64,000 nt of DNA, taken from Patescibacteria group bacterium. GTDB taxonomy: Bacteria > Patescibacteriota > Patescibacteriia > Buchananbacterales > UBA6539. A program made the position numbers and the translations under genes. The stretch's first letter is position 1. Each line of letters starts with the position of its first letter. The stretch is taken from contig JAQTYZ010000001.1 in assembly GCA_028688055.1 (NCBI GenBank), forward strand, positions 242,910 through 306,909, written 5' to 3'. Of this stretch, positions 1,000 through 48,434 are shown one piece after another. A model generated the notes under the pieces. That model was not told the origin of the DNA, made no database searches, and saw only the letters and a list, made by a program, of their open reading frames with translations.

Positions 1000-3900
1000 T
1001 TATTTATTTATAATCGCCAGAAAATTATTGCTAGTTTTTATCCAATCAAATTTGTTGGCCCAGTCCAAGCATTGAACCATCATTGAATGGCGTAGTTTTT
1101 CGTTGATTATCAGCTCGACCATTTTATCGGCAAATTCTTGGCGGTTGCCATATTCAACTAAGTAACCGGTATGAGGATTACTAACCGAGTCACGTAAGCC
1201 CGGAACGTCAGACGCAATCACCGGCGTGGCGCAGGCGTTGGCTTCAATCGTCGTGATACCCCAGCCTTCCATAAAAGACGGATTAACTAAAACCCAAGCT
1301 TTTTGCAGGAGGCTGATTTTTTGTTGCTCATTAACTTTTCCGGTAAAAGAAACTTTGTCTGACAAATTTAAATTGGTCATCAATTTTTTAAGCTTGTAAT
1401 CTTCCTCACCGCTACCGGCAATGACTAATTTAGCATTCGGAATTTTTTCACTAACAATCTTAAACGCTTCCAGCAAAACATTAATTGATTTATATGCTTT
1501 TAACCGACCGAGATATAAAATTTCCGGGTAAACGCTTTTTTGGCCCGGTTTTAAATCATTAAGATGAACACCTGGATGGACAATCTCAATGCCTGCTTGG
1601 CCAAGACCCAATTCCATTATTTCTTCTTTGCTTGAATTAGAAACGGTGATAAACGGAATTTTTCGGTAAACCAAAGGCATTAAATCTTTTTCCAAAAAAC
1701 TGGCAATTATGGCTAACGGCTTAGCAAGCGATTGACGAAAAACTTCTTGATGAACGTGATGCATTAGGCAATATATTTTTTTTCTTGAATAGAGCGGTGT
1801 AAAAAACGGAATGCCATTTTGACAATCAATAATAACATCATAGTGGCCGCGGAAGCGCAAGCTGTAATAAATAAACGCCCAGAAATAAACAAAATAAAAT
1901 CCACCGCGGCGAATAATTTGTACTCCGTCAACCATTTCATTTCTTAGACACGTTGTATCGTTGCCGCAAAAAATGGTGACATAATGTCCTTGCTTGAGCC
2001 ATTGCTTGGCCATCTCTTGAATATAGGCCTCAGCCCCGCCAGCGAATTTATGTTTAGTATCACGCCAATTAAAAATAAGAATTTTTTTGGTATTGGCATT
2101 GTCAGCAATTGTCGGCAGATTGGCAAATACGCCGAGGAAGTCAATCAGGTTATTTTTAATTGAACCATAGAGGTATTCATAACGATTAAGCCAGGAAATT
2201 GATATTAAGCTCAGCGCGCTAGTTATAAAAATAACGCCGGTTATTTGATAAATATTTTGATGATAGATGATAATACCCAGCGACATCATTACGGAAAAAA
2301 TTAAAGACGCGCCGGCGAAGAAATAATTTTTTTTCGCCAAGTGGTATGAGACATAAACATTGCTAAGGGTAAACATGGCAATCGCCGGCAAATAGATATT
2401 TAAGTATGGCAGCACCACCAATGACTTCGCACCAAAAATAAACGGTATCACCAATCGGCCGAGGGTTAACAAACCAATTGAGCCAAAGCCGACTAAAACG
2501 GCGGTTGCAGCTAAAATAATTCTTAGTTTGTTTTCGGAGTTTTTATTTAAGCCGACGTCGCGACTAACCAGAGTTGTGATGAAAATACTCGGTAGGGCCC
2601 CAAAAAAGAAAACCATTTTTCCAATCAGTGCGAGTAGGGAATACTCGCCAGCAATTTGCGGTGATAAATAATGCTTAACCAAGATGATGTCAAAACTCAA
2701 AAAGACGATGGCGGAAATACCGGCGAACAGTGAAGCGGTATAGAATTTTACCGGGAATTCGATGATGGCGGCTGGTTCCGCTTTAAGGTTTAGTCTATTT
2801 TTGACTAAATAGACTGAGGCTGTCGCCGAAACAATGATTGAAAATGGAATTGAGATAAAGGCAAATTGCCCCAACCCAGCATAGACCAAAACAAACGCCG
2901 CTATCAATTTGCTTACGGACTCGGTCAAAATAATAAGCGCAACGGTTTTAAAATAGAGCGTTCCATTAAGGTAACCTTGGTTAGCAGCAGCAATGACACC
3001 GCCAATTAAAATTGGGGTAAATAACAACAGCGAAAGATAATTTGGCAGCTTAAAAAATATGGTTAAAGTTGGAATAGCTAAGAGCCAAGCCGCCGAGATG
3101 ACAACGGTGGCAATCGCGCCGCGCTTAATAATTTTTTTTAAAAAATTAACACTAGCTTGTTCGCCGACCGCCGTCGACAAGTAAGCGGTTCGGTAATTGA
3201 CTGTTGATGATAAAGCGCCAATAAATATTCCGGCAATAAACCACAGCGTGTTAATGAAAGTAATAAGTCCCAGATTTTCAAAAGTCAAAGCGCGCCCAAG
3301 AAAAGCGTTATATAACAAGTTTAAAACATTTGAAATCATCATCGCCGCCAAAAGTATTCCGCCGCTGGTTAAATTATCCAACTTAATTTTGTAAGGTATC
3401 TTTTCAGCGATGATATTTTGTACTAGCTTAGACGTTGAAGCAAAAAATGACAGCGGTGAACGCTTGCGTAAGTTGGGGCCATTATTATCCCAGCTCCAAT
3501 AATAATCCACCGTTGAGTATGGTAGTCGATCAGTAATCGACTGAAGATCTTGAGGGGTAGTTGATTCTGCCGGCGCTGACGGGATAATGATTTTAAAAAT
3601 TAATAAGCCAAATGATTTTGCCTTAGCTTTGGCAGCTTGGATAAATTCATAGGCCGAATGTTTTTTAATATGCAAACCGTTGTCATCCCAAGACCATTGG
3701 TAGGAACTTAGTCGGTACGAAATTGAACGATACAAATTAGTAACATTATTTTCAATTTTTTGAGTTGTCGCATTACCTTGAGGAATAAACTCGCCAAAAA
3801 ACTGCCAGGTTTTTTGAGCTGTTTGGATTAAGGGTGCCAAAAAAAATTCGCTTGGTTTTATTTTTAGGTGTAAACCGTGATGAGTTTTTTCCCAATAGTG

Positions 3901-6000
3901 AGGCTTAACAATTAATTGGTATAAGGCAAAGTATGAAGCAATACTAGTCATCAGCCAATAAAATGGCACCAAATAAATATATTTCATCAGTGACCAATGA
4001 TTTTTTCTAGCGCAACCAATCATGTAGTAATATAAAAACAAAAAGTTACCGAAGACTAAAGAAGTAGCCGCCATAAAGAAAATTAGCGGTGGAAATAATT
4101 GTTCAATCGTCGGACCAACAATCGAGTATAAAGTAAAATAGGCAATGGTGGCGAGCCATAAAAAAGGATTAATCATGGCAAAGGCAATTTTGCCGCCGAC
4201 CACCAGTTGAAAAATAATTGCATGAACCCCGTTGTAACGAAACAGTTTTAGCGGATGGCGCATATGAACCAAGTAGGTCTGCATATAACCTTTCATCCAA
4301 CGCGATCGCTGACGGAGCCAATTTTTGGCGTGACTATTGGCCTCTTCAAGTGTCGTGGAATCAATAATGGCGGTTTTATAATTTTTTCTAAACAGTCTAA
4401 TGCCTAAATCGCAATCTTCGGTGACATTAAACGGATCCCAACCTTCGAGTTCAACTAAGCTGGCCGTTTTAAAATGATTACTGGTCCCACCGAGGGGAAT
4501 GTAAGTATTTAATGATTGCAAGCCCGTTAAGGTAACATCAAACCATAATGAATATTCGGCGGTAAAAAAGCGCGTCAGTAAATTCTGATGTGGGTTGTGA
4601 TAATTTAATTTTGCCTGTAGACAAGCCACGTCGGGCGCGACTCGCTGGAAGCCAAGATACGCTTTTTTAAGTTGAAGTGGGTCGGGAATATCTTCGGCAT
4701 CATAAATAACTAAATATTCCCCGCGGGCAAAACCTAGGCCATAGTTGCAGGCTTTTGGTTTGGTCTTGGGAAAAGAGTCGGGTACCACTATGGCCCTGAC
4801 GTAGTCGGGCAAATCAAGTTTGGTCGCCATTTCGACGGTGACCTGATCGTCTTCTTCCAATAGCAGCAAAACATCTAAACGATTTTTTGGCCAATCAATT
4901 TTTTTGATAGCTGACAAAAAACTAGGCAACACCTCAGCTTCTTTATACAGCGGACATAAAATTGAATAAACCGGCAAGCTGTTATCATCAAGTAATTTAA
5001 CGTCAGAATTTTTAATTTTAATTTCGGGTGAGTTTTTTAAACTTTTTGTAACAAGATAAAAATTAAATAACACGTCAATAAAATAAACGGCACTCATCAG
5101 GGCGGTAATGATAATGGCGGTGGTCATCGGATTATTGTATAAACCAGCGCTAATCAACAAGATAACGAAAAAAATAAATATTTTTTGCCAGCGGGCAAAA
5201 GTTTGAATGGCGGAAGTTTCTTGCTTCAAAGTGGTGTGAGTAATAAATCTTTTTTTTCTGAAGGCAACCCCGGCGCCAATCATTTTTAATTCAGGAATAA
5301 TTTCAAGAATCTGATTCGGCGTCAACTTGAGTTTAAGCGCGTTAAGGCCGATCTCGTAAGCAACTTTTAAAATTTTAACTTTCGATTGTCCACTTCGGCG
5401 ATTCTCAAACATAATGTCCACTTCGGCGATGCGATAGCCGTAGTGCCTTGATTTTAAAAGAAATTCTAGGTCAAAAGTCCAGGGTGTCGGAGAAACTTTA
5501 ACTTCGTTGAGAATTTTAGTTTTAAATATTTTAAATCCGGATTGAACATCGCAACCCAAGCCGTGTAACCATTTGGCGAATAGTAAATTAAAAACACGGC
5601 TCGCGAGCCGTCGTTTAAAGGATAATTTACTTTCGTTTCGTTTGGCGACCACAATGTCAAAACCCTTTTCAATTTTTTTTAACATTTGTGGCAAGGCTTC
5701 GGGCGGATATTGCAAGTCGCCGTCGATAAAGCCAATCAGATTATATTTAGCCTTGGCAAAACCTTCAAGTAGCGATTGCGCCTTACCCCGTTTACCTTTT
5801 TTTTCATACAGTGAAATCGGAAAAAAATTAGCAAGCTCTCTAACTTTGTCTCTGGTACCATCAGTTGAATGGTCATCAATAAAAATAAGCTCATAGTCTG
5901 CCGTGCCAGTCAGAGCTTGGTCGATGCGATTGATTAACTCAGCAATATTTCCCGCTTCATTTAGAACAGGGATAATGACTGATAGTCTGTTACGATTCAT
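1000..6000 (-). CDS. 1666-aa multidomain glycan-assembly fusion protein: GT2 (DPM1-like) + GT2 processive synthase-like (QxxRW) + Wzx-like polysaccharide flippase membrane domain + GT4
   Basis: Uninterrupted 5-kb ORF in AT-rich DNA. N-terminal SVIIPVLNE...FIDDHSTDGT (GT2, dolichol-P-mannose synthase-like). Second GT2 with DAEDIP and RQRSRWMKG (QxxRW processive synthase motif). W-rich duplicated linker (SYQWSWDDNGLHIKKHS / DYYWSWDNNGPNLRKRS). About 12-TM Wzx/MOP-like region. C-terminal GT4 (EGWGITTIEANACATPVIASDVPG). Confidence 0.85.
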   Translation of the reverse strand: MNRNRLSVIIPVLNEAGNIAELINRIDQALTGTADYELIFIDDHSTDGTRDKVRELANFFPISLYEKKGKRGKAQSLLEGFAKAKYNLIGFIDGDLQYPPEALPQMLKKIEKGFDIVVAKRNESKLSFKRRLASRVFNLLFAKWLHGLGCDVQSGFKIFKTKILNEVKVSPTPWTFDLEFLLKSRHYGYRIAEVDIMFENRRSGQSKVKILKVAYEIGLNALKLKLTPNQILEIIPELKMIGAGVAFRKKRFITHTTLKQETSAIQTFARWQKIFIFFVILLISAGLYNNPMTTAIIITALMSAVYFIDVLFNFYLVTKSLKNSPEIKIKNSDVKLLDDNSLPVYSILCPLYKEAEVLPSFLSAIKKIDWPKNRLDVLLLLEEDDQVTVEMATKLDLPDYVRAIVVPDSFPKTKPKACNYGLGFARGEYLVIYDAEDIPDPLQLKKAYLGFQRVAPDVACLQAKLNYHNPHQNLLTRFFTAEYSLWFDVTLTGLQSLNTYIPLGGTSNHFKTASLVELEGWDPFNVTEDCDLGIRLFRKNYKTAIIDSTTLEEANSHAKNWLRQRSRWMKGYMQTYLVHMRHPLKLFRYNGVHAIIFQLVVGGKIAFAMINPFLWLATIAYFTLYSIVGPTIEQLFPPLIFFMAATSLVFGNFLFLYYYMIGCARKNHWSLMKYIYLVPFYWLMTSIASYFALYQLIVKPHYWEKTHHGLHLKIKPSEFFLAPLIQTAQKTWQFFGEFIPQGNATTQKIENNVTNLYRSISYRLSSYQWSWDDNGLHIKKHSAYEFIQAAKAKAKSFGLLIFKIIIPSAPAESTTPQDLQSITDRLPYSTVDYYWSWDNNGPNLRKRSPLSFFASTSKLVQNIIAEKIPYKIKLDNLTSGGILLAAMMISNVLNLLYNAFLGRALTFENLGLITFINTLWFIAGIFIGALSSTVNYRTAYLSTAVGEQASVNFLKKIIKRGAIATVVISAAWLLAIPTLTIFFKLPNYLSLLLFTPILIGGVIAAANQGYLNGTLYFKTVALIILTESVSKLIAAFVLVYAGLGQFAFISIPFSIIVSATASVYLVKNRLNLKAEPAAIIEFPVKFYTASLFAGISAIVFLSFDIILVKHYLSPQIAGEYSLLALIGKMVFFFGALPSIFITTLVSRDVGLNKNSENKLRIILAATAVLVGFGSIGLLTLGRLVIPFIFGAKSLVVLPYLNIYLPAIAMFTLSNVYVSYHLAKKNYFFAGASLIFSVMMSLGIIIYHQNIYQITGVIFITSALSLISISWLNRYEYLYGSIKNNLIDFLGVFANLPTIADNANTKKILIFNWRDTKHKFAGGAEAYIQEMAKQWLKQGHYVTIFCGNDTTCLRNEMVDGVQIIRRGGFYFVYFWAFIYYSLRFRGHYDVIIDCQNGIPFFTPLYSRKKIYCLMHHVHQEVFRQSLAKPLAIIASFLEKDLMPLVYRKIPFITVSNSSKEEIMELGLGQAGIEIVHPGVHLNDLKPGQKSVYPEILYLGRLKAYKSINVLLEAFKIVSEKIPNAKLVIAGSGEEDYKLKKLMTNLNLSDKVSFTGKVNEQQKISLLQKAWVLVNPSFMEGWGITTIEANACATPVIASDVPGLRDSVSNPHTGYLVEYGNRQEFADKMVELIINEKLRHSMMVQCLDWANKFDWIKTSNNFLAIINK

Positions 6001-6389
6001 TATTATTTAGCAAAAAAACGTATGAATAAATCTACTGATTTTAAGTAAGTAAGCCTATAATTTTTACATTAATATTGCAGTTTTGTCAAGTATTTCAATA
6101 TAACAATTTGTATGACGAAGTATGATTTATTATTAGAATAAATTTTGCTAATTTTAGCAAATTTGCAAAAAAGTGGTTTTTGTGACATTGCTGTTGAAAA
6201 TTTTCTCTCGCTATGCTAAGGTTTCAGGACGGCTAAAATTAGCCAGATCAATGCAAGGACCGCCTCTTGCGGCTCCTTTAACAATAAACTCAACCGGAAA
6301 ATATATAGGAGGGAAGTGGAAGTAAAACGCCTTTTGTCGAGTACGAAACGATGAACCGGGCGAATGCCCAAAACTAGGAGTGTCCAAAG

Positions 6390-7781
6390 ATGAGAATCGT
6401 TCGTAGTGCCACCTTGCTTGCCTTGGTTATCGGCCTGGCAGGTTGCCCGCCGGTCCACCCGATATTCATTTGGGGTGCCGGCCTCTTCGCGACCGACGGC
6501 GGTTGCGAAAACAACTTTTCCGTTTTCGTTACGAACAACAATGCGGCCGAGGCGAGTTTCCAGCTTTGGCAGCAAAACAGCCAAGGTCAGTGGCTCCCGA
6601 CTCAGGACCAGCATAAGGTCCAGTTCGGTCCGGTCGAAAACGTGACACTGTATCGTGTCGACGCGACGTACCAGGGCCAGGACGTGTTCTACTGGAATGG
6701 TGCGTACATTTATTCGCCGTATGGCTATCCTTACCATTACAAGTCAAACGACAAGGACGCCAATGGCGAGAAAGTGTTGCCGGGCTATTACCCCTGGAAT
6801 TACGTGCCTTGGGGCTGGGTGCAGTCGCACGGCGTGTACGGCCATACGACCGAGACAGTTGAAGTCTCGCACATGGATATCATCCATAGTGAAGGTTTCG
6901 ACCTCTACTCGGTTTTTCCCAATCTATCGTCCAGCCCGTACCGAGTCAAAATCACTGGCGTCGATACGGACGGCAAGGCTTTTGTGGCCGCGACCACCGA
7001 TGTTTATTCGGTGGTCGACGATTGCACCGCCAATGGTGGCCCCTGTGGAACACCGAGTCTGCGCATCGACCGTACGCCGCTGTTTGGCGATAACAACGGT
7101 GTCGTCAGCGGCACTGTCTGTCTCGAAAACCCAGTCGGTTGGACCGTGGGCGTTTATGCTCACGTTACCAACGTGTGGCCGGATCCGTACAATCTCATCG
7201 GCGTCGTGCCAATCAACGCGAGTGGTAATTGGACGCAGCAAGGCGTCCAGACTGCGGACGACAAGTTCGCGATCGAATTCTTCGCGTCACTGGCGCCAAC
7301 TGGTACCGTTTACCCCTCGACTTCGCAGGGCATTCCCCAAATTGCGGGGCAGGTTGATTCCGATGTGAAACAACGGACACCGTTTGTGGTGTTTGTCGGC
7401 AACCCCTCTGTCTCGGGTGGCGCTGAGTGCCAGACGAATTATTTCCCAGCGCTATTCGGCGCGATTGCGTACGTCCAACAGGCGAACGGTAACGTTCACC
7501 AGCAGCCGATGTACAGTCCGCCGTCCGCGAGCACGTTGGTATCATTGATACCGGATGCGGGTGGGGCTTTCTGCACCTTCCACATCGCCCTTAACCAGGT
7601 CGCCGCCGGGTCAAGCTACGACCCCGGACAAGCGGCCACGGTCAAGGTGCAGGTCATCCCTCAGGGATACAATTACGTCAAAACGGAGACGGGCATAACG
7701 GTTGACAACCTCAACCTCAACCTGACTCCAGAGGGAGTGGCCGGACGAGGAGCCGATGTCGCCGCCACCTTAGCCCCGTAG
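6390..7781 (+). CDS. Secreted lipoprotein of unknown function, encoded in a high-GC island (atypical codon usage)
   Basis: AGGAG RBS 9 nt upstream. Signal peptide with lipobox LALVIGLAG-C. Trp/Tyr/Gly-rich mature part. GC and GC3 far above flanks. The overlapping ORFs in other frames (6216-6737-, 6655-7368+ etc.) are high-GC artefacts. Confidence 0.7.
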   Translation: MRIVRSATLLALVIGLAGCPPVHPIFIWGAGLFATDGGCENNFSVFVTNNNAAEASFQLWQQNSQGQWLPTQDQHKVQFGPVENVTLYRVDATYQGQDVFYWNGAYIYSPYGYPYHYKSNDKDANGEKVLPGYYPWNYVPWGWVQSHGVYGHTTETVEVSHMDIIHSEGFDLYSVFPNLSSSPYRVKITGVDTDGKAFVAATTDVYSVVDDCTANGGPCGTPSLRIDRTPLFGDNNGVVSGTVCLENPVGWTVGVYAHVTNVWPDPYNLIGVVPINASGNWTQQGVQTADDKFAIEFFASLAPTGTVYPSTSQGIPQIAGQVDSDVKQRTPFVVFVGNPSVSGGAECQTNYFPALFGAIAYVQQANGNVHQQPMYSPPSASTLVSLIPDAGGAFCTFHIALNQVAAGSSYDPGQAATVKVQVIPQGYNYVKTETGITVDNLNLNLTPEGVAGRGADVAATLAP

Positions 7782-7906
7782 CTTTTCGGGAAGAGTAACA
7801 CCGCTCGTCGGGAGCTTTGACTGTGGTACGCTGCAGTTAGGGTTCTCGGCGAGTCTTTTTTTACTTGATTTTAATCTAAAAAAAGCATATAATATTATAG
7901 TAATAT

Positions 7907-9601
7907 TTGGTTATGAAAAAACTTTTTAAATCTAAAATTCTGTGGTCGGTGGTCCTAATTCTAATTATCGGCGGCGTTTTTGCTTATCGATACTTTAATA
8001 AGCCTAAAACGGTTGAATATGTCACCGAGGATGTTAGGCGCGGTAATCTTACCCAAACCATTGATGCAACCGGTAAAGTTAAATCAGCGACCGAAATTGA
8101 CTTAAACTTTAAAAATGCCGGTCGACTGGCAACGGTAAATGTTAAAGTTGGCGATCAAATTAAGGAAGGCCAAATTTTAGCTCAGATTAAAGCCACTGAT
8201 TTGAAAATTAATGTTAATAAAGCGCAGGCTAACTTAAATGAAGCCCTGGCCAATTTAGCCAAGGTCGAAACCGGCGCCACTAAACAAGACATTGCTGTTT
8301 ATCAGGCTGCCGTTGAAAAGGCAAGCAGTGATTTAGACAGTGCCCAATCCGATTTATCGAATATAACCGAAACCTATACTCAGGCTGTGGTTAACCAAAG
8401 GCAAAATATTTTGGTTGATATTAATTCGACTTTGACTAAGGCAAATATTTCTTTACAAACTCTTTATGACACGATTTATTATAAAGGTGATGCCAATAAT
8501 TTAGTTACTTCAAATCAATCGTTATATCAACAAACGGTTAACGGATATTCATTGTCAATTAACAAACTTGATGATGCCGAACTTAGTTATAATATTGCCA
8601 AACTTAACCCAACTGATGATAAAATTAGTGATGCGATTGCAAAAAGTTTAACGGCGCTCGGTCAGGTGTCACAAACCTTAAATGATGGGGGAGCCTTGTT
8701 GGATTATGTAATTATTACTTCATCACTAACTCAGGCCAACTTAGATAGTTTAAAGTTGAATATAAATTCCGAGCGGGTAACAACTAACACGAGTCTTAAT
8801 ACGATCGAGACCGGTAAGCAAGCGTTAAACGATGCGAGTATCACTTTGCAAACAAAAGTGGACTCGGCTAAAAATGCGGTTACCGCGGCTGAAAAAAATT
8901 TAGCTAAGGCTAATGCCGATTTGTCGCTCAAATCAGCACCGGCCAGACCGGAGGATTTGACACTTTATCAGGCCCAGGTTGCGCGCGCGCACGGCGACTT
9001 GCAATTAGCTTTGGACCAATATAGCGACACAATTATTAAAGCCCCGATTGACGGAGTGATTACCGAAGTTAATTTCAGTGTTGGTGAACAAACCAATTTG
9101 AGTCAGCCTGCCATTGTGATGTTGGCCAATGAGGCTTTTGAAATTGAAGTAAATGTTCCGGAGTCTGATATTGTTAAAATAACCAGGGGTGATAATGCTG
9201 AAATCACTTTAGACGCATTTACCGATGCCGATATTTTTGACGGCGTCATCACCACCATTGATCCGGCTCAAACCGAAATTCAAGATGTTATTTATTATAA
9301 AGTTACGGTTGGTTTTCGTCCGGAGCAACCAGCTAAGGTTAAGAATTTAGTGGAAAGAATTAAGCCGGGGATGACTGCTAATTTAACGGTGAAAACCGGT
9401 GAGATCAATGACATTTTGATTATTCCAGCGCGAGCCGTCAAGGAGGAAAATGGCCAAAAATATGTTGAAATACTTGCTAACGGCACACCACAGCGAATAA
9501 ATATTACCATCGGACTTCGTGGCGACGATGGTTTAGTTGAAGTTACGTCTGGTTTAAGTGAAGGTCAAAAAGTCATTACCTTTGTTCGCAATCAGGGTTA
9601 G
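7907..9601 (+). CDS. HlyD-family periplasmic adaptor / membrane fusion protein with long coiled coil
   Basis: N-terminal TM, extended alpha-helical coiled-coil region, C-terminal beta-barrel/lipoyl-like segment (IKAPIDGVITEVNFSVGEQ), typical of efflux/secretion MFPs. Confidence 0.6.
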   Translation: MVMKKLFKSKILWSVVLILIIGGVFAYRYFNKPKTVEYVTEDVRRGNLTQTIDATGKVKSATEIDLNFKNAGRLATVNVKVGDQIKEGQILAQIKATDLKINVNKAQANLNEALANLAKVETGATKQDIAVYQAAVEKASSDLDSAQSDLSNITETYTQAVVNQRQNILVDINSTLTKANISLQTLYDTIYYKGDANNLVTSNQSLYQQTVNGYSLSINKLDDAELSYNIAKLNPTDDKISDAIAKSLTALGQVSQTLNDGGALLDYVIITSSLTQANLDSLKLNINSERVTTNTSLNTIETGKQALNDASITLQTKVDSAKNAVTAAEKNLAKANADLSLKSAPARPEDLTLYQAQVARAHGDLQLALDQYSDTIIKAPIDGVITEVNFSVGEQTNLSQPAIVMLANEAFEIEVNVPESDIVKITRGDNAEITLDAFTDADIFDGVITTIDPAQTEIQDVIYYKVTVGFRPEQPAKVKNLVERIKPGMTANLTVKTGEINDILIIPARAVKEENGQKYVEILANGTPQRINITIGLRGDDGLVEVTSGLSEGQKVITFVRNQG

Positions 9602-14487: not shown

Positions 14488-14561
14488 TCGGGGGTCGTCT
14501 AAAGGTAGGACGCCAGATTCTGGCTCTGGTAATCGGGGTTCGAGTCCCTGCCCCCGAGCCA
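14488..14561 (+). tRNA. tRNA-Gln (anticodon CUG), CCA encoded
   Basis: Hand-folded cloverleaf: acceptor TCGGGGG/CCCCCGA (U1-A72, typical of Gln), anticodon stem CCAGA/TCTGG, loop TTCTGGC, T-loop TTCGAGT, 4-nt variable loop. Confidence 0.8.
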
Positions 14562-31836: not shown

Positions 31837-31838
31837 TA

Positions 31839-32206
31839 CCTAAGTAAACCGATAAGCCGAATTCTGTATCCCGTTGCCGGGATGATGATCATCTATCTAG
31901 GTCCAATATTGCTAATGGACTCAAGCTGCCTACCTAATTTGGCATTGCACCTGGCAGGAGTTTACCACACCGACTGTTACCAGTCAGTCATGCGTGGGCT
32001 CTTACCCCACGATTTCAACCTTACCGCTCGCAGAAGCGAGGTTGGCGGTGTATTTTCTGTTGCACTTGCCCTGAGCTTGGCAAAAAAACAGAAGTCTTAA
32101 GCACTTCTATCATTTTGTTACTCTCGGCTCCCGTTAGGAGTTGCCGTTTTGTGGTGTTCGGACTTTCCTCCCGAAATTAATCGGGCGATCATCTAGTTTA
32201 CTTAGG
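31839..32206 (-). ncRNA. rnpB: RNase P RNA, bacterial type A
   Basis: Reverse strand contains the universally conserved blocks GGAGGAAAGTCCGAAC (P4 5' strand), GTGCAACAGAAAA, GGTAAGGTTGAAATCGTGGGGTAAGAGCCCAC, GGTAACAGTCGGTG...GTAAACTCC, ACAGAATTCGGCTTATCGGTTTAC (P4 3' strand). P1 pairing is CCTAAGTAAAC / GTTTACTTAGG at the ends. Length about 368 nt. Confidence 0.9.
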
Positions 32207-42616: not shown

Positions 42617-42733
42617 ACAAATGTTGACAATGGATTAGTCTGATGGCGAGGAAGGTTAGATCTTCCAGTCCTGGTTTGTCTAGGATCGTAAGCTGTCAGG
42701 CCCAACCGTGCCTACGGGCATCGGAGAAGAAGA

Positions 42734-43285
42734 ATGCGCAAGATCTTAGCAGCAATGGCAGTTTTGTTGAGTATGTCCCTGTACAACCAGGTCGGCACCG
42801 TCAGTGCGGCGGACGGAATGACGAACTCGGCATGGGACAAGCCTCTCACGATCAACAACACGGATGTCTACTGGGTGGAACGGGACGTGAATGACGTTGT
42901 TCATTCAACCGTCACCAACGAGCCCAGGTGGTTCTCAAAGGAGTGCGGCCTCTTGGTTATTCCAACTCGGGTCGTCGAAGACCGCGTCTACTTTGCCAAG
43001 TTTGGCAAGGAGTGGTATATCCACAGGAGTGACCTGGCCGATAACCCCAGGGCGACTGTTCAGTGGCTGGAATCCTACTCGATTGGTGGTACAGCCATTC
43101 TCGGAGTTACGTCACTGTGGGACGCGATCGAAATCGCGGCCAGCAGCAGCAGCTACCCCGAAGTGACGGCGAAGATCATGAACCAGTTGGCCGCGGAACG
43201 GTTCTATGACCCCTGCAAGTACGCTGACCTCAATCGGCGGGATATCTTCAATACCCTAAAGGAAGCCCAGCTTCCCGTTCGGTGA
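42734..43285 (+). CDS. Secreted protein of unknown function encoded in high-GC island 2
   Basis: GGAGAAGAAGAATG RBS; signal peptide MRKILAAMAVLLSMSLYNQVGTVSA-AD; GC-rich codons; overlapping frames are artefacts. Confidence 0.7.
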   Translation: MRKILAAMAVLLSMSLYNQVGTVSAADGMTNSAWDKPLTINNTDVYWVERDVNDVVHSTVTNEPRWFSKECGLLVIPTRVVEDRVYFAKFGKEWYIHRSDLADNPRATVQWLESYSIGGTAILGVTSLWDAIEIAASSSSYPEVTAKIMNQLAAERFYDPCKYADLNRRDIFNTLKEAQLPVR

Positions 43286-43304
43286 AGTCCCCGCGAAGTC
43301 TTAT

Positions 43305-44011: not shown

Positions 44012-44130
44012 CCAAAACCGTTAGGTACACTACGATAAACCGTGTTTTCTTAGAAAACTAAAGGAGCCACCTAATAATCATGATTACCTTAAGGTGCCCC
44101 GTTGAATGCTAACAATTATGCCAGACCGTA

Positions 44131-44158
44131 AGCCGGACACGAGTCCGGCTTTTTTTTA
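44131..44158 (+). terminator. Rho-independent terminator
   Basis: AGCCGGAC-acga-GTCCGGCT followed by TTTTTTTT. Confidence 0.7.
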
Positions 44159-44190
44159 TTAACAATTTAATGTTATAATATAATCAAATA

Positions 44191-44559
44191 ATGAAGAAAG
44201 GATTGATTTACACTCCAGTAAAATATATTGCCATCGGTTTAGTTGGTGATGTTTTATATTGGCCAATTTGGTGGTATACCGTCGGGTTAGTTAAAACGCT
44301 AAAAATGTGTTTTCGTGAGATCGCGGCGCAGGAGTCGAGACTGGGTCTTTCAATTTGGGCCAAGAATATATTTACCCCGATGTTTGGACAGTATGACGTC
44401 GAGGGACGAATTATTAGTTTTTTTGCCAGACTAATCCAAATTATTTATCGCTCAGTTTTATTGCTGGTTTGGTCAATTTTTGTAATGATCATACTTATTG
44501 TTTGGATTTTTACGCCCTTTTTTGTTGTCTATCAAATATATTATCTATTTTTAAATTAA
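44191..44559 (+). CDS. Hypothetical membrane protein, translationally coupled to the downstream Clp-like ATPase gene
   Basis: TM helices at both ends; its stop TAA is directly abutted by the ATG of the next gene (TAAATG). Confidence 0.5.
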   Translation: MKKGLIYTPVKYIAIGLVGDVLYWPIWWYTVGLVKTLKMCFREIAAQESRLGLSIWAKNIFTPMFGQYDVEGRIISFFARLIQIIYRSVLLLVWSIFVMIILIVWIFTPFFVVYQIYYLFLN

Positions 44560-47325
44560 ATGAGTAATACCGGATCTAAAAAAGAAGTACAAATAATAAA
44601 GTGTGATGCTTGTAATTCTACCGGCAAGCAGGGGATTAAAAGGTGTGAAAATTGTGGGGGTATTGGTATTGCTGGCTGGACCGGGTCAGAATTATTATAC
44701 TGGGGCAAAATCATAAGTTATGCGAAAATTGCCGAGGACAGACTTTTTTATTTAGTTAATAAGACAATTAATGGAGTGCTGTATTTATTTGGTGTAATCG
44801 GCATTTCATTATTGGGTTATTCATTATTAAAAAATTGGCAATTAACCGGTGTGAATATTGCTTATCTTAATAAACCTAGTTTAATTCTGTTGGTGTTCTA
44901 TGTTTCAATTCTAACGGATACCTATTTAATTTATCGATTCAATCGAGAGCTAGAAAAAATTAGGTTTATTCCCAAAAAAAAATATGATGATGATTCGCGA
45001 GATGTTATTAATACTATCAACTGGGAAGTGATAAAAAAAATTAGTCGAAAAAAGAAAATTGATATCGCGGAATATTTTAATACTGACGCGGAAAAATCAG
45101 TAGCCGAGTCATGGAAAATAGCTAATAAATATCACGATGCCGTGGTGACGCCAATTCACTTGTTTGTTGCCCTACTAGGTAACTCACAAACGCAAATTAT
45201 TTTTAGTCGTCTAGGTATTTCATTTACGACGTTAAAAAATAAGATTAGAAACACTCTCGCGCAGCAACTTGAACTGACTGATTCTCAGGCCATTATCGGC
45301 GAAAATTTATGGGCTATTATTTTTAGCTCCTATTTGTTAGCTTATGAAAAAAGACAAAAAAAAGTCGATGTTATTGAATTATTAGAACAAATGGCCTCGC
45401 AGGAAAACGAAGTTACGACCCTACTTTATGATTTAGATGTGACAAAAAATAAAATAGTAAACGTTATTTCCTGGCTTCGGATTAGAAAACAACTCAGGGA
45501 AAACTGGCTCAAATTTAGACAACGCGCGTCCTTGAGACCAAAAAGTTCAATGAACAGGGCGATGACAGCTGTTGCGTCGCCAGTCTTGGATGTTTTCGGT
45601 CACGATATAACTTATTTAGCTCAATCAGGTTATTTATTCCCGTGTATCGGGCGCGACGACGAAATTGAAACTATTTTTCAAAATATTAAGGGCGGAAGCC
45701 GCAAAAGTACCCTCCTGATTGGAAATCCCGGAGTCGGCCGGAATACAATTATTGAAGGGGTTGCCCAAAAAATGGTGGCCGAAGCAGTGCCAAAATTTTT
45801 AGCAGACAAAAGATTAGTTAGTTTGAGCGTTGCCAAGTTAGTCAGCGGTGCTTCTCCGTCCGAAGCGCAGCAGCGCCTAATGTTAATAACTAACGAAATC
45901 CGCCGCGCCGGTAATATTATTCTGTATATTTCGGATATTCATAATATGATTGGTATAACATCCGGCCGGCAAGGTAGTATTGATCTGGCCGATGTTCTTT
46001 CTCAGTCGTTAAAAAATATTGTTTGTTTCGCCACCACGACGCCGTCGGACTATAGTCGATATATCGAAAATAAAAGCTCAATTGATAGCGTTTTTTCCAA
46101 ACTCAATATTGATGAAGTGACCGGCGATGAGGCAATCCAAATTCTTGAAGCCAAGGCCGGAACCGTCGAATATCAACAAAAAGTATTTTTTTCCTATGAT
46201 GCTATTTCAAAGATTGTCGATTTGTCTGATCGCTACTTGCATGATCGCTACTTACCCGAAAAGGCTATTGAAATTTTGCAGGAAGTGTCCACTAAAATTA
46301 GAGACAGTAAAGGAAAAAACAGCACCATTACCGGTAATGATGTTGCCATTATAATTTCGGATAAAACAAAAATTCCATTAGCTGACATAACTCAGGAGGA
46401 ATCAGAAAAACTTCTAAACTTAGAAACAAAGATTCATGAGCGGATGGTTGATCAACAAGAAGCTGTTTCAATGGTTGCTTCTAGCCTTAGGCGTGCCAGA
46501 GCTGAGATGAGAGACATCTCGCGGCCAATTGTAAATCTTCTATTTTTGGGTCCCACCGGCGTTGGTAAAACCGAACTTGCTAAAACTGTTGCCGAGGTTT
46601 ATTTTGGTGCCGCGGAAAATATGATTAGACTGGATATGTCAGAGTATCAGGAAAAAAATAGCGTTAACAGATTAATTGGCTCGCCCACTGGCTACTCTGA
46701 TTCGTCTGGCGGTGGATTTTTAAGTGACGCCGTTAGAAAAAATCCTTTCTCCTTGATTTTACTTGATGAAATTGAAAAGGCGCATCCTGACATTTTAAAT
46801 ATTTTTTTACAAGTTATGGATGACGGCCGCCTGACCGATAATAGCGGAAAAACAATTGATTTTACCAACACGATTATTATTGCAACTTCTAACGCCGGTA
46901 CGCAGTATATTCAAGACAGAATTGCGGCTGGCGATTCAGTTGAAAATATTAAAAATAGTCTTGTTGATTCTCAATTAGGGCAGTATTTTAGGCCGGAATT
47001 ACTTAACCGTTTTGATGGAATTATTGTCTTTAAGCCGCTTAGTATGGCTGATGTTGTGGCGATTGCCAAATTAATGATTAATAAAGTCGCCAAAAATTTA
47101 GAAACCAAGGGGATAGCCCTTGACGTTAGCCAGGTGGCGCTTGAGAAACTAGCCAGTGAAGGCTTTGATATAAATTTTGGCGCCAGGCCACTACGTCGAG
47201 TCATCCAGCAAAAATTGCAAGACCCAATTGCTAATTTGATTTTGGCCAGCCAGGCCACGAGACGCGACACTATCGTTTATGATGAAAATCAGAATTTGAG
47301 CCTTAAAAAAGCCCGGCCAATTTAA
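44560..47325 (+). CDS. Membrane-anchored ClpB/ClpC-like AAA+ ATPase with N-terminal DnaJ-type CxxCxGxG zinc finger; first ATPase domain degenerate
   Basis: CDACNSTGK...CENCGGIG zinc finger, 2-3 TM helices, Clp_N-like repeats. D1 Walker A is GNPGVGRNT (K->R, T->N) and D1 Walker B is ILYISDIHN (DE->SD). D2 is canonical (GPTGVGKTELAK; ILLDEIEKAHPD; sensor/Arg finger region present). Confidence 0.8.
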   Translation: MSNTGSKKEVQIIKCDACNSTGKQGIKRCENCGGIGIAGWTGSELLYWGKIISYAKIAEDRLFYLVNKTINGVLYLFGVIGISLLGYSLLKNWQLTGVNIAYLNKPSLILLVFYVSILTDTYLIYRFNRELEKIRFIPKKKYDDDSRDVINTINWEVIKKISRKKKIDIAEYFNTDAEKSVAESWKIANKYHDAVVTPIHLFVALLGNSQTQIIFSRLGISFTTLKNKIRNTLAQQLELTDSQAIIGENLWAIIFSSYLLAYEKRQKKVDVIELLEQMASQENEVTTLLYDLDVTKNKIVNVISWLRIRKQLRENWLKFRQRASLRPKSSMNRAMTAVASPVLDVFGHDITYLAQSGYLFPCIGRDDEIETIFQNIKGGSRKSTLLIGNPGVGRNTIIEGVAQKMVAEAVPKFLADKRLVSLSVAKLVSGASPSEAQQRLMLITNEIRRAGNIILYISDIHNMIGITSGRQGSIDLADVLSQSLKNIVCFATTTPSDYSRYIENKSSIDSVFSKLNIDEVTGDEAIQILEAKAGTVEYQQKVFFSYDAISKIVDLSDRYLHDRYLPEKAIEILQEVSTKIRDSKGKNSTITGNDVAIIISDKTKIPLADITQEESEKLLNLETKIHERMVDQQEAVSMVASSLRRARAEMRDISRPIVNLLFLGPTGVGKTELAKTVAEVYFGAAENMIRLDMSEYQEKNSVNRLIGSPTGYSDSSGGGFLSDAVRKNPFSLILLDEIEKAHPDILNIFLQVMDDGRLTDNSGKTIDFTNTIIIATSNAGTQYIQDRIAAGDSVENIKNSLVDSQLGQYFRPELLNRFDGIIVFKPLSMADVVAIAKLMINKVAKNLETKGIALDVSQVALEKLASEGFDINFGARPLRRVIQQKLQDPIANLILASQATRRDTIVYDENQNLSLKKARPI

Positions 47326-47396: not shown

Positions 47397-48434
47397 ATGA
47401 ATTACATTTATTTGCTAACCTTGCTAATTGCCGTCTTATCGTCAATAATTTTAACTCCCATTGTTAAACAATTAGCAATAAAAAAAAATATTGTCGACTT
47501 ACCAAATCCAAGAAAAATTCATTCAAGACCAACGCCGTTATTGGGCGGTCTCGCCATTTTTGGCTCTTTTTTTATTTCAATTTATCTAATATTAACCCTA
47601 GCCGGAATTTATGATTCGAGAGTCAGTAGCTGGCAATTATTTGCCATATTTATCGGGGGGATTATTATTATGCTCGGTGGCTATTTTGATGATAAATTTA
47701 ATCTCAAGCCATCAACTCAAATAATATTTCCCGTTATTTCATCAATCATCATCGTGATGTCTGGAATCAGAATTAACTATGTTACTAACCCCGGCGGTGG
47801 TATCTACCATTTTTCGGTAATGTTTGGATCAATGATGGCTTTTATTTGGTTGTTAGGAATGAGCTACACGACCAAATTTTTAGACGGACTTGATGGGCTA
47901 CTTTCGGGGGTAACATTTATCGGTTCAATTATTATTTTTTTTGTCAGCTTACGCTGGGATTTGCCGTTGTCGCTAACGTCGATTATGTGTATGGCGCTTG
48001 CCGGTTCCACCCTTGGGTTTTTGTTTTTTAATTGGCATCCGGCCAAAATTTTTCTCGGCGAGGGCGGGAGTATCTTTTGTGGTTTTATGTTGGGTGTATT
48101 AGCGATAATATCAGGCTCGAAGATTGCCACCGCCCTCCTAATAATGGGCGTTCCAATTCTCGATGTGCTATGGGTCATCGCTCGAAGATTATTTGAAAAA
48201 AAATCACCAACCGCTAGCGATCGAAAGCATCTCCATTTTAGATTAATTGACGTTGGCCTTAGTCACCGACAAACGGTTATTTTTTTGTATTTTATTACGG
48301 CGATTTTTGGCATCACCTCATTATTCTTGCATTCAAAAGGAAAAATATATGCCTTAGCAATGCTAACTATTTTTATGGTTTTGCTGGCCCTAGTATTGGT
48401 TTGGTCTTATCGAAAAAAAAATGCGAAAATTTAA
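47397..48434 (+). CDS. Polyprenyl-phosphate N-acetylhexosamine-1-phosphate transferase (MraY/WecA/TagO family)
   Basis: RKIHSRPTPLLGGLAIF, DDKFNL, LDGLDGL, 10-11 TM. Confidence 0.75.
   Translation: MNYIYLLTLLIAVLSSIILTPIVKQLAIKKNIVDLPNPRKIHSRPTPLLGGLAIFGSFFISIYLILTLAGIYDSRVSSWQLFAIFIGGIIIMLGGYFDDKFNLKPSTQIIFPVISSIIIVMSGIRINYVTNPGGGIYHFSVMFGSMMAFIWLLGMSYTTKFLDGLDGLLSGVTFIGSIIIFFVSLRWDLPLSLTSIMCMALAGSTLGFLFFNWHPAKIFLGEGGSIFCGFMLGVLAIISGSKIATALLIMGVPILDVLWVIARRLFEKKSPTASDRKHLHFRLIDVGLSHRQTVIFLYFITAIFGITSLFLHSKGKIYALAMLTIFMVLLALVLVWSYRKKNAKI

Follow-up and report, generated by a model that had tools for sequence, protein, structure and literature searches.

The stretch of DNA analysed here (64 kb, hereafter the window; positions 242,910 to 306,909 of contig JAQTYZ010000001.1 from a Patescibacteria group bacterium, assembly GCA_028688055.1) contains two abutting open reading frames (ORFs) on the plus strand: 44191-44559, encoding a small membrane protein of 122 amino acids (aa), and 44560-47325, encoding a membrane-anchored AAA+ protein of the Clp/Hsp100 type of 921 aa. 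Both lie at the coordinates given in an earlier reading of this DNA (the original prediction), and the TAAATG junction described there was borne out when the DNA was read: in TTT TTA AAT TAA ATG, the TAA stop codon (44557-44559) touches the ATG at 44560, the two ORFs being in the same frame. Programmed readthrough of this single in-frame TAA was considered and rejected, as stop-to-start offsets elsewhere are mostly not multiples of three. No second Clp or other AAA+ protease ATPase was found in the window. The 921-aa protein is clearly a class-I Clp/Hsp100 derivative, composed, from the N- to the C-terminus, of a four-cysteine knuckle of the CxxCxGxG type, a two-helix membrane hairpin, a Clp_N domain, a degenerate first AAA+ module (D1) and a canonical second one (D2).

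In Pfam searches AAA_2, AAA_lid_9 and ClpB_D2-small scored above their cut-offs and Clp_N matched weakly; the tandem AAA+ modules with AAA_lid_9 and ClpB_D2-small are present, and D1 aligns to D1 of ClpC. The NCBIfam scan assigned the protein to none of the curated Clp families, as every score lay below the respective cut-off: ClpB (TIGR03346) was the top match with 580.9 bits against 1232, in two separate stretches, followed by ClpA (TIGR02639; 541.2 bits against 993, in one continuous piece), ClpG and ClpK (484 and 488 bits against 1900), and ClpV (TssH; 455.5 bits against 885). Type VI secretion genes were not found among the called neighbours in five Pfam-annotated loci. The closest solved relatives are ClpC of Bacillus subtilis (482 bits) and of Staphylococcus aureus, followed by ClpB, ClpE, and ClpA. 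The M-domain is absent: residues 406-454 of ClpC have no counterpart, and both the ClpB and the ClpC alignments break at this place, while the ClpA model aligns unbroken (residues 174-899 to model positions 3-725). A search for the ClpP-binding IGF/L loop, proposed in the original prediction, showed that it is absent. No [LIV]-G-[FL] docking loop is present in D2, AAGD and a gap standing opposite KYVGF of ClpC, and the columns of the family alignment (115 homologues) contain no hydrophobic-G-F/L motif at this position; the stretch from sensor-1 to the Arg finger (46885-46998) is ClpB-like in length and lacks the ClpP-binding tripeptide. Hence the protein has, as had been predicted, an architecture that is not standard for ClpA, ClpB or ClpC. 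Names given to its relatives in public databases are generic, namely "AAA family ATPase" and "ATP-dependent Clp protease ATP-binding subunit".

The N-terminus begins with the four-cysteine knuckle CDACNSTG-x6-CENCGGIG (residues 15-36; 44602..44667, plus strand), which resembles one half of the cysteine-rich (CR) domain of DnaJ. Its cysteines C15, C18, C29, and C32 are kept in 108-109 of 115 homologues, with the consensus CPxCxGxG-x6-CxxCxGxG. The DnaJ CXXCXGXG model (PF00684) matched all ten N-termini tested and was the best Pfam match in seven (E-values from 1.4e-5 to 0.11); these matches span only positions ~42-65 of the 65-position profile, that is, the last two of its four motifs, and their scores of 13-26 bits fall short of the gathering cut-off (32.7). 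Anti-TRAP or HypA scored slightly above PF00684 in the remaining three, the sequence from the window among them, and Anti-TRAP and BSD2_CRD recurred among the matches to the cluster. Zinc-finger models of the ClpX and ClpE type gave no match to the N-terminus even at E<=10. An AlphaFold2 model of the N-terminal 345 residues, built on 112 aligned sequences, had a predicted local distance difference test (pLDDT) score of 92.4 and a predicted template modelling (pTM) score of 0.88; in it the cysteine cluster is folded into beta-hairpins (pLDDT ~96), and short beta-hairpins also cover a conserved LLYWGK motif. The conserved pattern of four cysteines together with the beta-hairpin model points to zinc binding, and we describe the cluster as a putative single-zinc, DnaJ-CR-like half domain rather than as a member of PF00684. 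The DnaJ-type cysteine cluster of the original prediction is thus present, conserved in most members, and recurrently matched by the DnaJ model, but it is a half domain scoring below the cut-off, and it is absent from 24 of the 166 family members described below.

The knuckle is followed by a membrane hairpin (44767..44940, plus strand) with the transmembrane (TM) helices TM1 (residues ~70-92) and TM2 (~106-127) and an outer loop of ~13 residues. Two to three such helices had been claimed; membrane helices are indeed predicted, but both hydropathy and AlphaFold2 give their number as two. Hydropathy analysis detected only these two hydrophobic segments within the first 350 residues, with KD-19 peaks of 1.6-2.0 at residues 78-82 and 109-118; when averaged over the family, TM1 reaches 2.04, TM2 is weaker (1.1), and TM2 carries the conserved motif LIFWLSLLTDxYLxYR. 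In the AlphaFold2 model helices 54-96 (43 residues) and 108-133 form a hairpin with pLDDT >88. Since there are two TM helices, the knuckle and the ATPase would be on the same side of the membrane, and the zinc knuckle, Clp_N, and both AAA+ modules are taken to be cytoplasmic on the basis of these predictions; since the outer loop has only ~13 residues, the hairpin is best read as an anchor, not as a sensor domain. The next domain (residues ~175-323; 45082..45528, plus strand) is the double-repeat Clp_N domain. AlphaFold2 predicted a helical domain over residues 155-323, and Foldseek aligned the Clp_N model with the solved N-domains of HSP101, ClpA, ClpB, and ClpC (target TM-score ~0.8, root-mean-square deviation ~2 Å over ~138 residues), so the Clp_N-like repeats noted earlier form a true Clp_N domain. 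A profile of the knuckle and hairpin alone (residues 1-135) retrieved one 151-aa fragment at a contig end and did not recover known family members.

The D1 module (45595..46326, plus strand) has no M-domain inserted in its lid and is catalytically degenerate. Residue-level alignment to B. subtilis ClpC placed the following replacements. First, in Walker A (GNPGVGRNT, 45721-45747, plus strand) GEPGVGKT of ClpC is changed to GNPGVGRN (K394R, T395N). Second, in Walker B (ILYISDIH, 45919-45942, plus strand) FIDELH is changed to YISDIH, both acidic residues being altered (Asp to S458 and Glu to D459). Third, in the pore loop (45844-45876, plus strand), which has no aromatic residue, KYRGEFE corresponds to S-PSEAQQ and the Tyr is lost. 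Finally, at 46084-46098 (plus strand) ERRFQ corresponds to DSVFS, the two Arg fingers being replaced by Ser and Val. The replacement of the Walker A Lys and the Walker B Glu was therefore correctly located in the original prediction; the damage goes further, as the Walker B Asp, the pore-loop Tyr, and the Arg fingers are lost as well.

Together with the D2-small domain, the D2 module (46327..47274, plus strand) is canonical, as had been predicted and as the ClpC alignment confirmed. It contains Walker A GPTGVGKT (46549-46572, plus strand), Walker B LILLDEIE (46753-46776, plus strand) within LLDEIEKA, and the motifs TSN, NRFD, and GARPLRR; N778 of sensor-1, R817, and GAR876 are present. The pore loop of the window's protein (GSPTGYSDSSGGGFL, residues 707-721; 46678-46722, plus strand) is intact: its GSPTGYSDSSGGG is equivalent to GAPPGYVGYEEGG, and the Tyr is kept.

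A protein database search retrieved >115 full-length homologues of ~920 aa with 44-63% identity, which puts the observation far beyond chance. All named homologues belong to Patescibacteria (Buchanan-, Falkow-, Kuenen-, and Kerfeldbacteria, and the Parcubacteria group), in agreement with the lineage-specific distribution that had been proposed. For residue counts, 115 database homologues were combined with 51 sequences from GTDB species representatives into a set of 166 non-redundant members; the catalytic motifs of D2 were scored in two sets, of 115 sequences and of 66 GTDB species. All four cysteines of the knuckle are present in 142 of the 166. The degenerate D1, whose conservation in homologues was a check proposed in the original prediction, is indeed conserved: the catalytic Glu is kept in seven members (elsewhere it is mostly Asn or Asp), both Arg fingers in two, and the pore-loop aromatic in none. 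The loss of the Walker A Lys is true of the window's protein but not of the family, as this position is Lys in 118 members and Arg in 48. By these alignments, what is universal in D1 is that it lacks a catalytic Glu, Arg fingers, and a pore-loop Tyr, and not that it lacks the Walker A Lys. At the same time, D1 keeps the GxxGVG[KR] P-loop, the sensor-1 Thr, and the lid motif DRYLPEKAI (LPxKAI). Mean pairwise identity is ~0.49 in D1, 0.66 in D2, and ~0.3 in the N-terminal modules, and D1 is under purifying selection. In both sets scored, D2 shows no variation in Walker A, Walker B, sensor-1, the Arg finger, or sensor-2.

Two parts of the protein vary. In 109 of the 166 members the D2 pore loop is cut from 16 to 10-12 residues and its aromatic residue is lost; judging from the alignment, the majority of the family is without a canonical gripping residue in either ring. 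The members with short loops retain the partner gene and the invariant catalytic motifs of D2, and upon clustering the short loops dominate several subclades. A further subclade, with proteins of ~892-897 aa, is missing the cysteine cluster and has kept a G-x-W-F-L-G-R-F-L-Y-W motif and the TM hairpin; as far as sequence comparison goes, the zinc knuckle is dispensable there. Full-text literature searches aimed at the family brought up no paper that describes an Hsp100 anchored in the membrane or specific to Patescibacteria. The family is a new architectural variant of Hsp100, not a categorically new protein, and it is probably a functional variant as well. Its interpretation as a defence system was tried and rejected: PADLOC gave generic AAA+ similarities only, and nothing for the small protein.

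The 122-aa protein encoded upstream (44191..44559, plus strand) has no match in Pfam, NCBIfam, or PADLOC. AlphaFold2 predicted an antiparallel hairpin of two ~50-residue helices (residues 3-51 and 70-121; pLDDT 91.6), for which Foldseek found only insignificant helical-hairpin matches in the PDB (E>4). According to hydropathy and charge analysis, the ends of the protein are hydrophobic (~12-34 and ~91-121); in the model they would sit in the membrane, and a basic stalk would carry the conserved tip F-x-P-M-x-G-x-Y-x-x-EGRIISFF. Five homologous loci were fetched via the Clp-like protein, and each has, immediately upstream, an ORF of ~125-135 aa whose product aligns to the small protein of the window; among the first three small proteins aligned, identity is 37-57% and 32 positions are invariant. 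A profile search yielded at least 669 clusters at 90% identity, those listed being all 120-145 aa long, and all named matches are hypothetical proteins of Patescibacteria. Among 1.84 billion representatives there were 562 relatives at 50% identity, nearly all of them stand-alone proteins of ~105-190 aa, the exception in length being one protein of 414 aa; the search gave no tie to a known family.

When GTDB species genomes were scanned for the small protein, at least 549 loci (in at least 549 species) were confirmed; 80 of these were kept for adjacency counts, 69 of them with enough downstream sequence. A Clp-like ORF of >800 aa with the D2 Walker A directly follows the small gene in 65 of these 69 loci, the gap from stop to start being -8 to +16 nt in 56 of 66. 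The exceptions include L063, where the small gene is followed by a 96-aa ORF that looks by eye like a GIY-YIG nuclease, and L065, where the N-terminus of the Clp-like protein is broken after 102 aa by a frameshift or an assembly error. The companion ORF of the original prediction is therefore a truly conserved partner, and, by its sequence and gene order, the small protein is a member of an unannotated membrane-protein family encoded by a dedicated partner gene.

The transcription unit probably starts at the small ORF and runs on beyond the 921-aa ORF. Just upstream of the small ORF there is a hairpin resembling an intrinsic terminator (44130..44159, plus strand), with a 9-bp stem containing six GC pairs followed by T8; as it closes the upstream unit, a new transcript would start at the small ORF. 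Directly after it an extended -10-like sequence, TGtTATAAT (44171-44179), lies 12 nt before the ATG, which suggests that the cassette transcript is leaderless or near-leaderless. Downstream, 71 nt separate the 921-aa ORF from the gene 47397..48434 (plus strand; Pfam Glycos_transf_4) for a WecA-like GT4 polyprenyl-phosphate HexNAc-1-phosphate transferase, and a scan of this gap detected no terminator-like site, so the unit probably continues into the GT4 gene. The original prediction was thus right to join the two ORFs but drew the unit too short. The GT4 protein scores higher with WecA (TIGR02380, 106.6 bits) than with MraY (62 bits), in both cases below the cut-offs. Of 60 evaluable GTDB loci, 46 have a GT4 homologue downstream on the same strand, which in ~17 of these 46 overlaps the Clp-like gene or lies within 15 nt of it; the GT4 gene is probably in the same operon as the cassette. 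In locus L012 (CAYXZR010000015.1; the same contig as P0034) a single ORF of 1234 aa, starting at ~4230, joins the Clp-like protein to GT4; it also lacks the cysteine cluster, and the fusion could be real or could reflect a stop codon lost in the metagenome-assembled genome. Other neighbours are less conserved (tgt in 20 of 79 loci, a 636-aa surface protein in 12 of 79). In the window, GT4 is followed by overlapping genes for a DUF192 protein and for a fused MFS/spermidine synthase protein. In a subclade having no GT4 neighbour, a gene of the T4SS_pilin family lies convergently (minus strand) just downstream of the Clp-like gene (L002, 8824-9204; L003, 8821-9213).

The most likely reading, to which we give about an even chance, is that the cassette encodes an AAA+ remodeller specific to Patescibacteria and independent of ClpP, which is tethered to the membrane and, together with its small partner, acts on clients in the envelope or membrane. 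The protein would form a hexamer whose N-terminal substrate-entry face is held to the membrane by 12 TM helices, probably with the addition of the small partner. D1 would act as a nucleotide-binding, non-hydrolysing assembly or spacer ring, which is the most economical reading of a module that is conserved and keeps its P-loop and sensor-1 while its catalytic residues are lost, and D2 would be the sole motor. The zinc knuckle, Clp_N, and the stalk of the partner may form a platform for clients or adaptors that brings in proteins of the membrane or of envelope biogenesis, among them possibly GT4 or the partner. In the window's protein, which has kept the D2 pore-loop Tyr, D2 would draw clients in through the inactive D1, so that they would be extracted, unfolded or remodelled without being handed over directly to ClpP.

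Several points weigh against such a remodeller. First, the aromatic residue of the pore loop is gone from D2 in 109 of the 166 members and from D1 in all of them, which implies that canonical threading is not the conserved function of the family, unless another residue substitutes; it is mainly for this reason that we do not rate an unfoldase model higher. The quality-control or disaggregation role proposed in the original prediction, itself inferred, is weakened by the same deletion. Second, as the knuckle is missing from 24 members, it cannot be essential to the core mechanism. Third, the interaction with the partner and the link to GT4 are deduced from gene order. Finally, it is by homology that the protein is taken to form hexamers and D1 to bind nucleotide.

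The same pore-loop data are at the core of the best of the alternative explanations, according to which the protein is a non-threading ATP-driven switch or scaffold, the D2 cycle serving to gate, assemble or regulate the partner, GT4, or both, with no polypeptide being translocated. We consider this possible, if on balance rather unlikely. The absence of an aromatic residue from every D1 pore loop and the short, non-aromatic D2 loop of most members, combined with invariant D2 catalytic motifs, speak for such a device, as do an obligate, conserved membrane partner and a conserved GT4 neighbour. On the other hand, the window's protein and 56 other members keep a PPGY-type D2 pore loop, and, to our knowledge, all characterised Hsp100 relatives are threading motors. 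Besides, non-aromatic pore loops can function: the AAA1 pore of ClpE works with Ile (I194) in place of an aromatic residue (PMC13125188), so that the loss of the aromatic is no proof of a non-threading mode.

A DnaK-coupled disaggregase of the ClpB type, acting on cytosolic aggregates, is very improbable. ClpB did give the top NCBIfam score, D2 and D2-small are ClpB-like, and there is no ClpP loop. Nevertheless, the M-domain coiled coil, which in ClpB is the docking site for Hsp70/DnaK, is absent, D1 is hydrolysis-dead by its motifs, the protein is predicted to be membrane-integrated, and the ClpB model matches only in two pieces, with 581 bits against 1232. We regard as very improbable, too, that the protein is an ordinary ClpP-dependent protease ATPase of the ClpC/ClpA type, merely tethered to the membrane, even though the public annotation name and the Firmicute ClpC proteins as closest solved relatives would favour this. 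The VGF/IGF/IGL tripeptide is absent, a gap in a region of ClpB-like length standing opposite KYVGF; ClpE and ClpC depend on VGF to dock ClpP (PMC13125188). Nor was any Clp equivalog assignment obtained. That the protein is a decaying paralogue, or its N-terminal extension an artefact of ORF calling, might be thought from the loss of several D1 catalytic residues and the Lys/Arg polymorphism of Walker A, but is effectively refuted by the conservation data: in >160 non-redundant sequences, and across hundreds of species, the full ~920-aa architecture is kept, with D2 invariant and D1 still ~49% identical on average, and the N-terminus is modelled with pLDDT >90.

Returning to a membrane-tethered remodeller, a more specific proposal, which we offer as a doubtful but worthwhile speculation, is that the cassette could be a Patescibacteria-specific envelope-biogenesis machine that extracts or recycles a membrane client (possibly GT4, as the initiating glycosyltransferase, or the partner) in the manner of Pex1/Pex6-Pex15 or Msp1, or else, in the two-thirds of members with both pore loops deleted, a non-threading ATP-driven membrane switch. 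The latter, if true, would be a way of working new to the Hsp100 clade. In textbooks Hsp100/Clp proteins figure as soluble unfoldases; a TM hairpin of their own, a dedicated partner, a dead first ring, and a mostly deleted D2 pore loop would widen the known roles of this clade. Patescibacteria are a major uncultured lineage with reduced genomes, and, as such genomes have few spare proteins and the cassette occurs in hundreds of species, it is likely to be important for envelope or membrane proteostasis. Moreover, the natural contrasts within the family (zinc finger present or absent, D2 pore-loop Tyr kept or lost, Lys or Arg in the D1 P-loop) can be used to study the division of labour in double-ring AAA+ proteins.

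Several other features of the window were recorded. A GC island (42650-43300, 55-58% GC in a window of ~38% GC) looks horizontally acquired; its ORF 42734-43285 (plus strand) encodes a protein of 183 aa whose N-terminus resembles a signal peptide and which matches nothing in Pfam or NCBIfam, and it is located between tgt and a RibD_C/DHFR-like gene. Another GC-rich patch, with a GC content of 0.50 over 6001-8000, is probably foreign; at 6390-7781 (plus strand) lies the gene for a 463-aa protein whose N-terminus is lipoprotein-like (..LAGCPP), along with several overlapping spurious ORFs typical of high-GC DNA. An ORF of 1666 aa at 1000-6000 (minus strand) has, by eye, glycosyltransferase-like segments fused to a long multi-pass membrane region. 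Ordinary housekeeping RNAs are represented by the bacterial class A RNase P RNA (31837-32204, minus strand) and by tRNA genes at 14488, 53568, 61692, 61768, and 63556.

Comparison with known systems shows which parts of the protein are shared and which are not. The CR domain of DnaJ has four CxxCxGxG motifs and two zinc centres, whereas the knuckle described here has two motifs, a putative single zinc centre, and no accompanying J-domain; the DnaJ-like zinc-finger proteins Anti-TRAP and BSD2 resemble it in their pair of CxxCxGxG motifs. A parallel with the N1 domain of ClpG as a zinc finger was considered and dropped, since zinc is not mentioned in the ClpG papers listed. With ClpC and ClpE the protein shares Clp_N, two AAA+ modules, and D2-small, and ClpE, too, has an extra N-terminal domain; it differs in lacking the M-domain and the VGF loop, in its dead D1, and in being membrane-integrated, while ClpE hydrolyses ATP in both of its rings and docks ClpP through VGF (PMC13125188). 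With ClpB/Hsp104 it shares D2-small, the length of the stretch from sensor-1 to the Arg finger, and the absence of a ClpP loop, but it has no M-domain, an inactive D1, a TM anchor, and a zinc knuckle, and it scores under half of the ClpB cut-off. The order N-D1-D2 without an M-domain is that of ClpA, which, in contrast, is soluble and has the IGL loop and a live D1.

Outside the Hsp100 clade, FtsH and Msp1/ATAD1 are described in the literature (PMC7949044, PMC12793716) as having an N-terminal TM anchor, an entry pore that faces the membrane, and membrane-protein clients; they are looser analogues, with a single AAA+ ring and no Clp_N, FtsH being in addition fused to a protease. The peroxisomal type-II AAA+ protein Pex1/Pex6 of eukaryotes is grouped with Cdc48/NSF, likewise outside the Hsp100 clade, and is no close homologue. 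Its D1 ring is inactive, all hydrolysis takes place in D2, and a small membrane protein, Pex15, holds the motor at the membrane; the pore loops of D2 are accessible to clients only by way of D1 (PMC5762779). Pex1/Pex6 is a heterohexamer that is recruited by a separate tail-anchored protein and has no TM hairpin of its own, and the likeness, an inactive D1 with an active D2 and a small membrane protein, makes it the best-documented working analogy only. By this analogy, the cassette may function more like Pex1/Pex6-Pex15, Msp1 or the ATPase part of FtsH than like a DnaK-dependent ClpB disaggregase.

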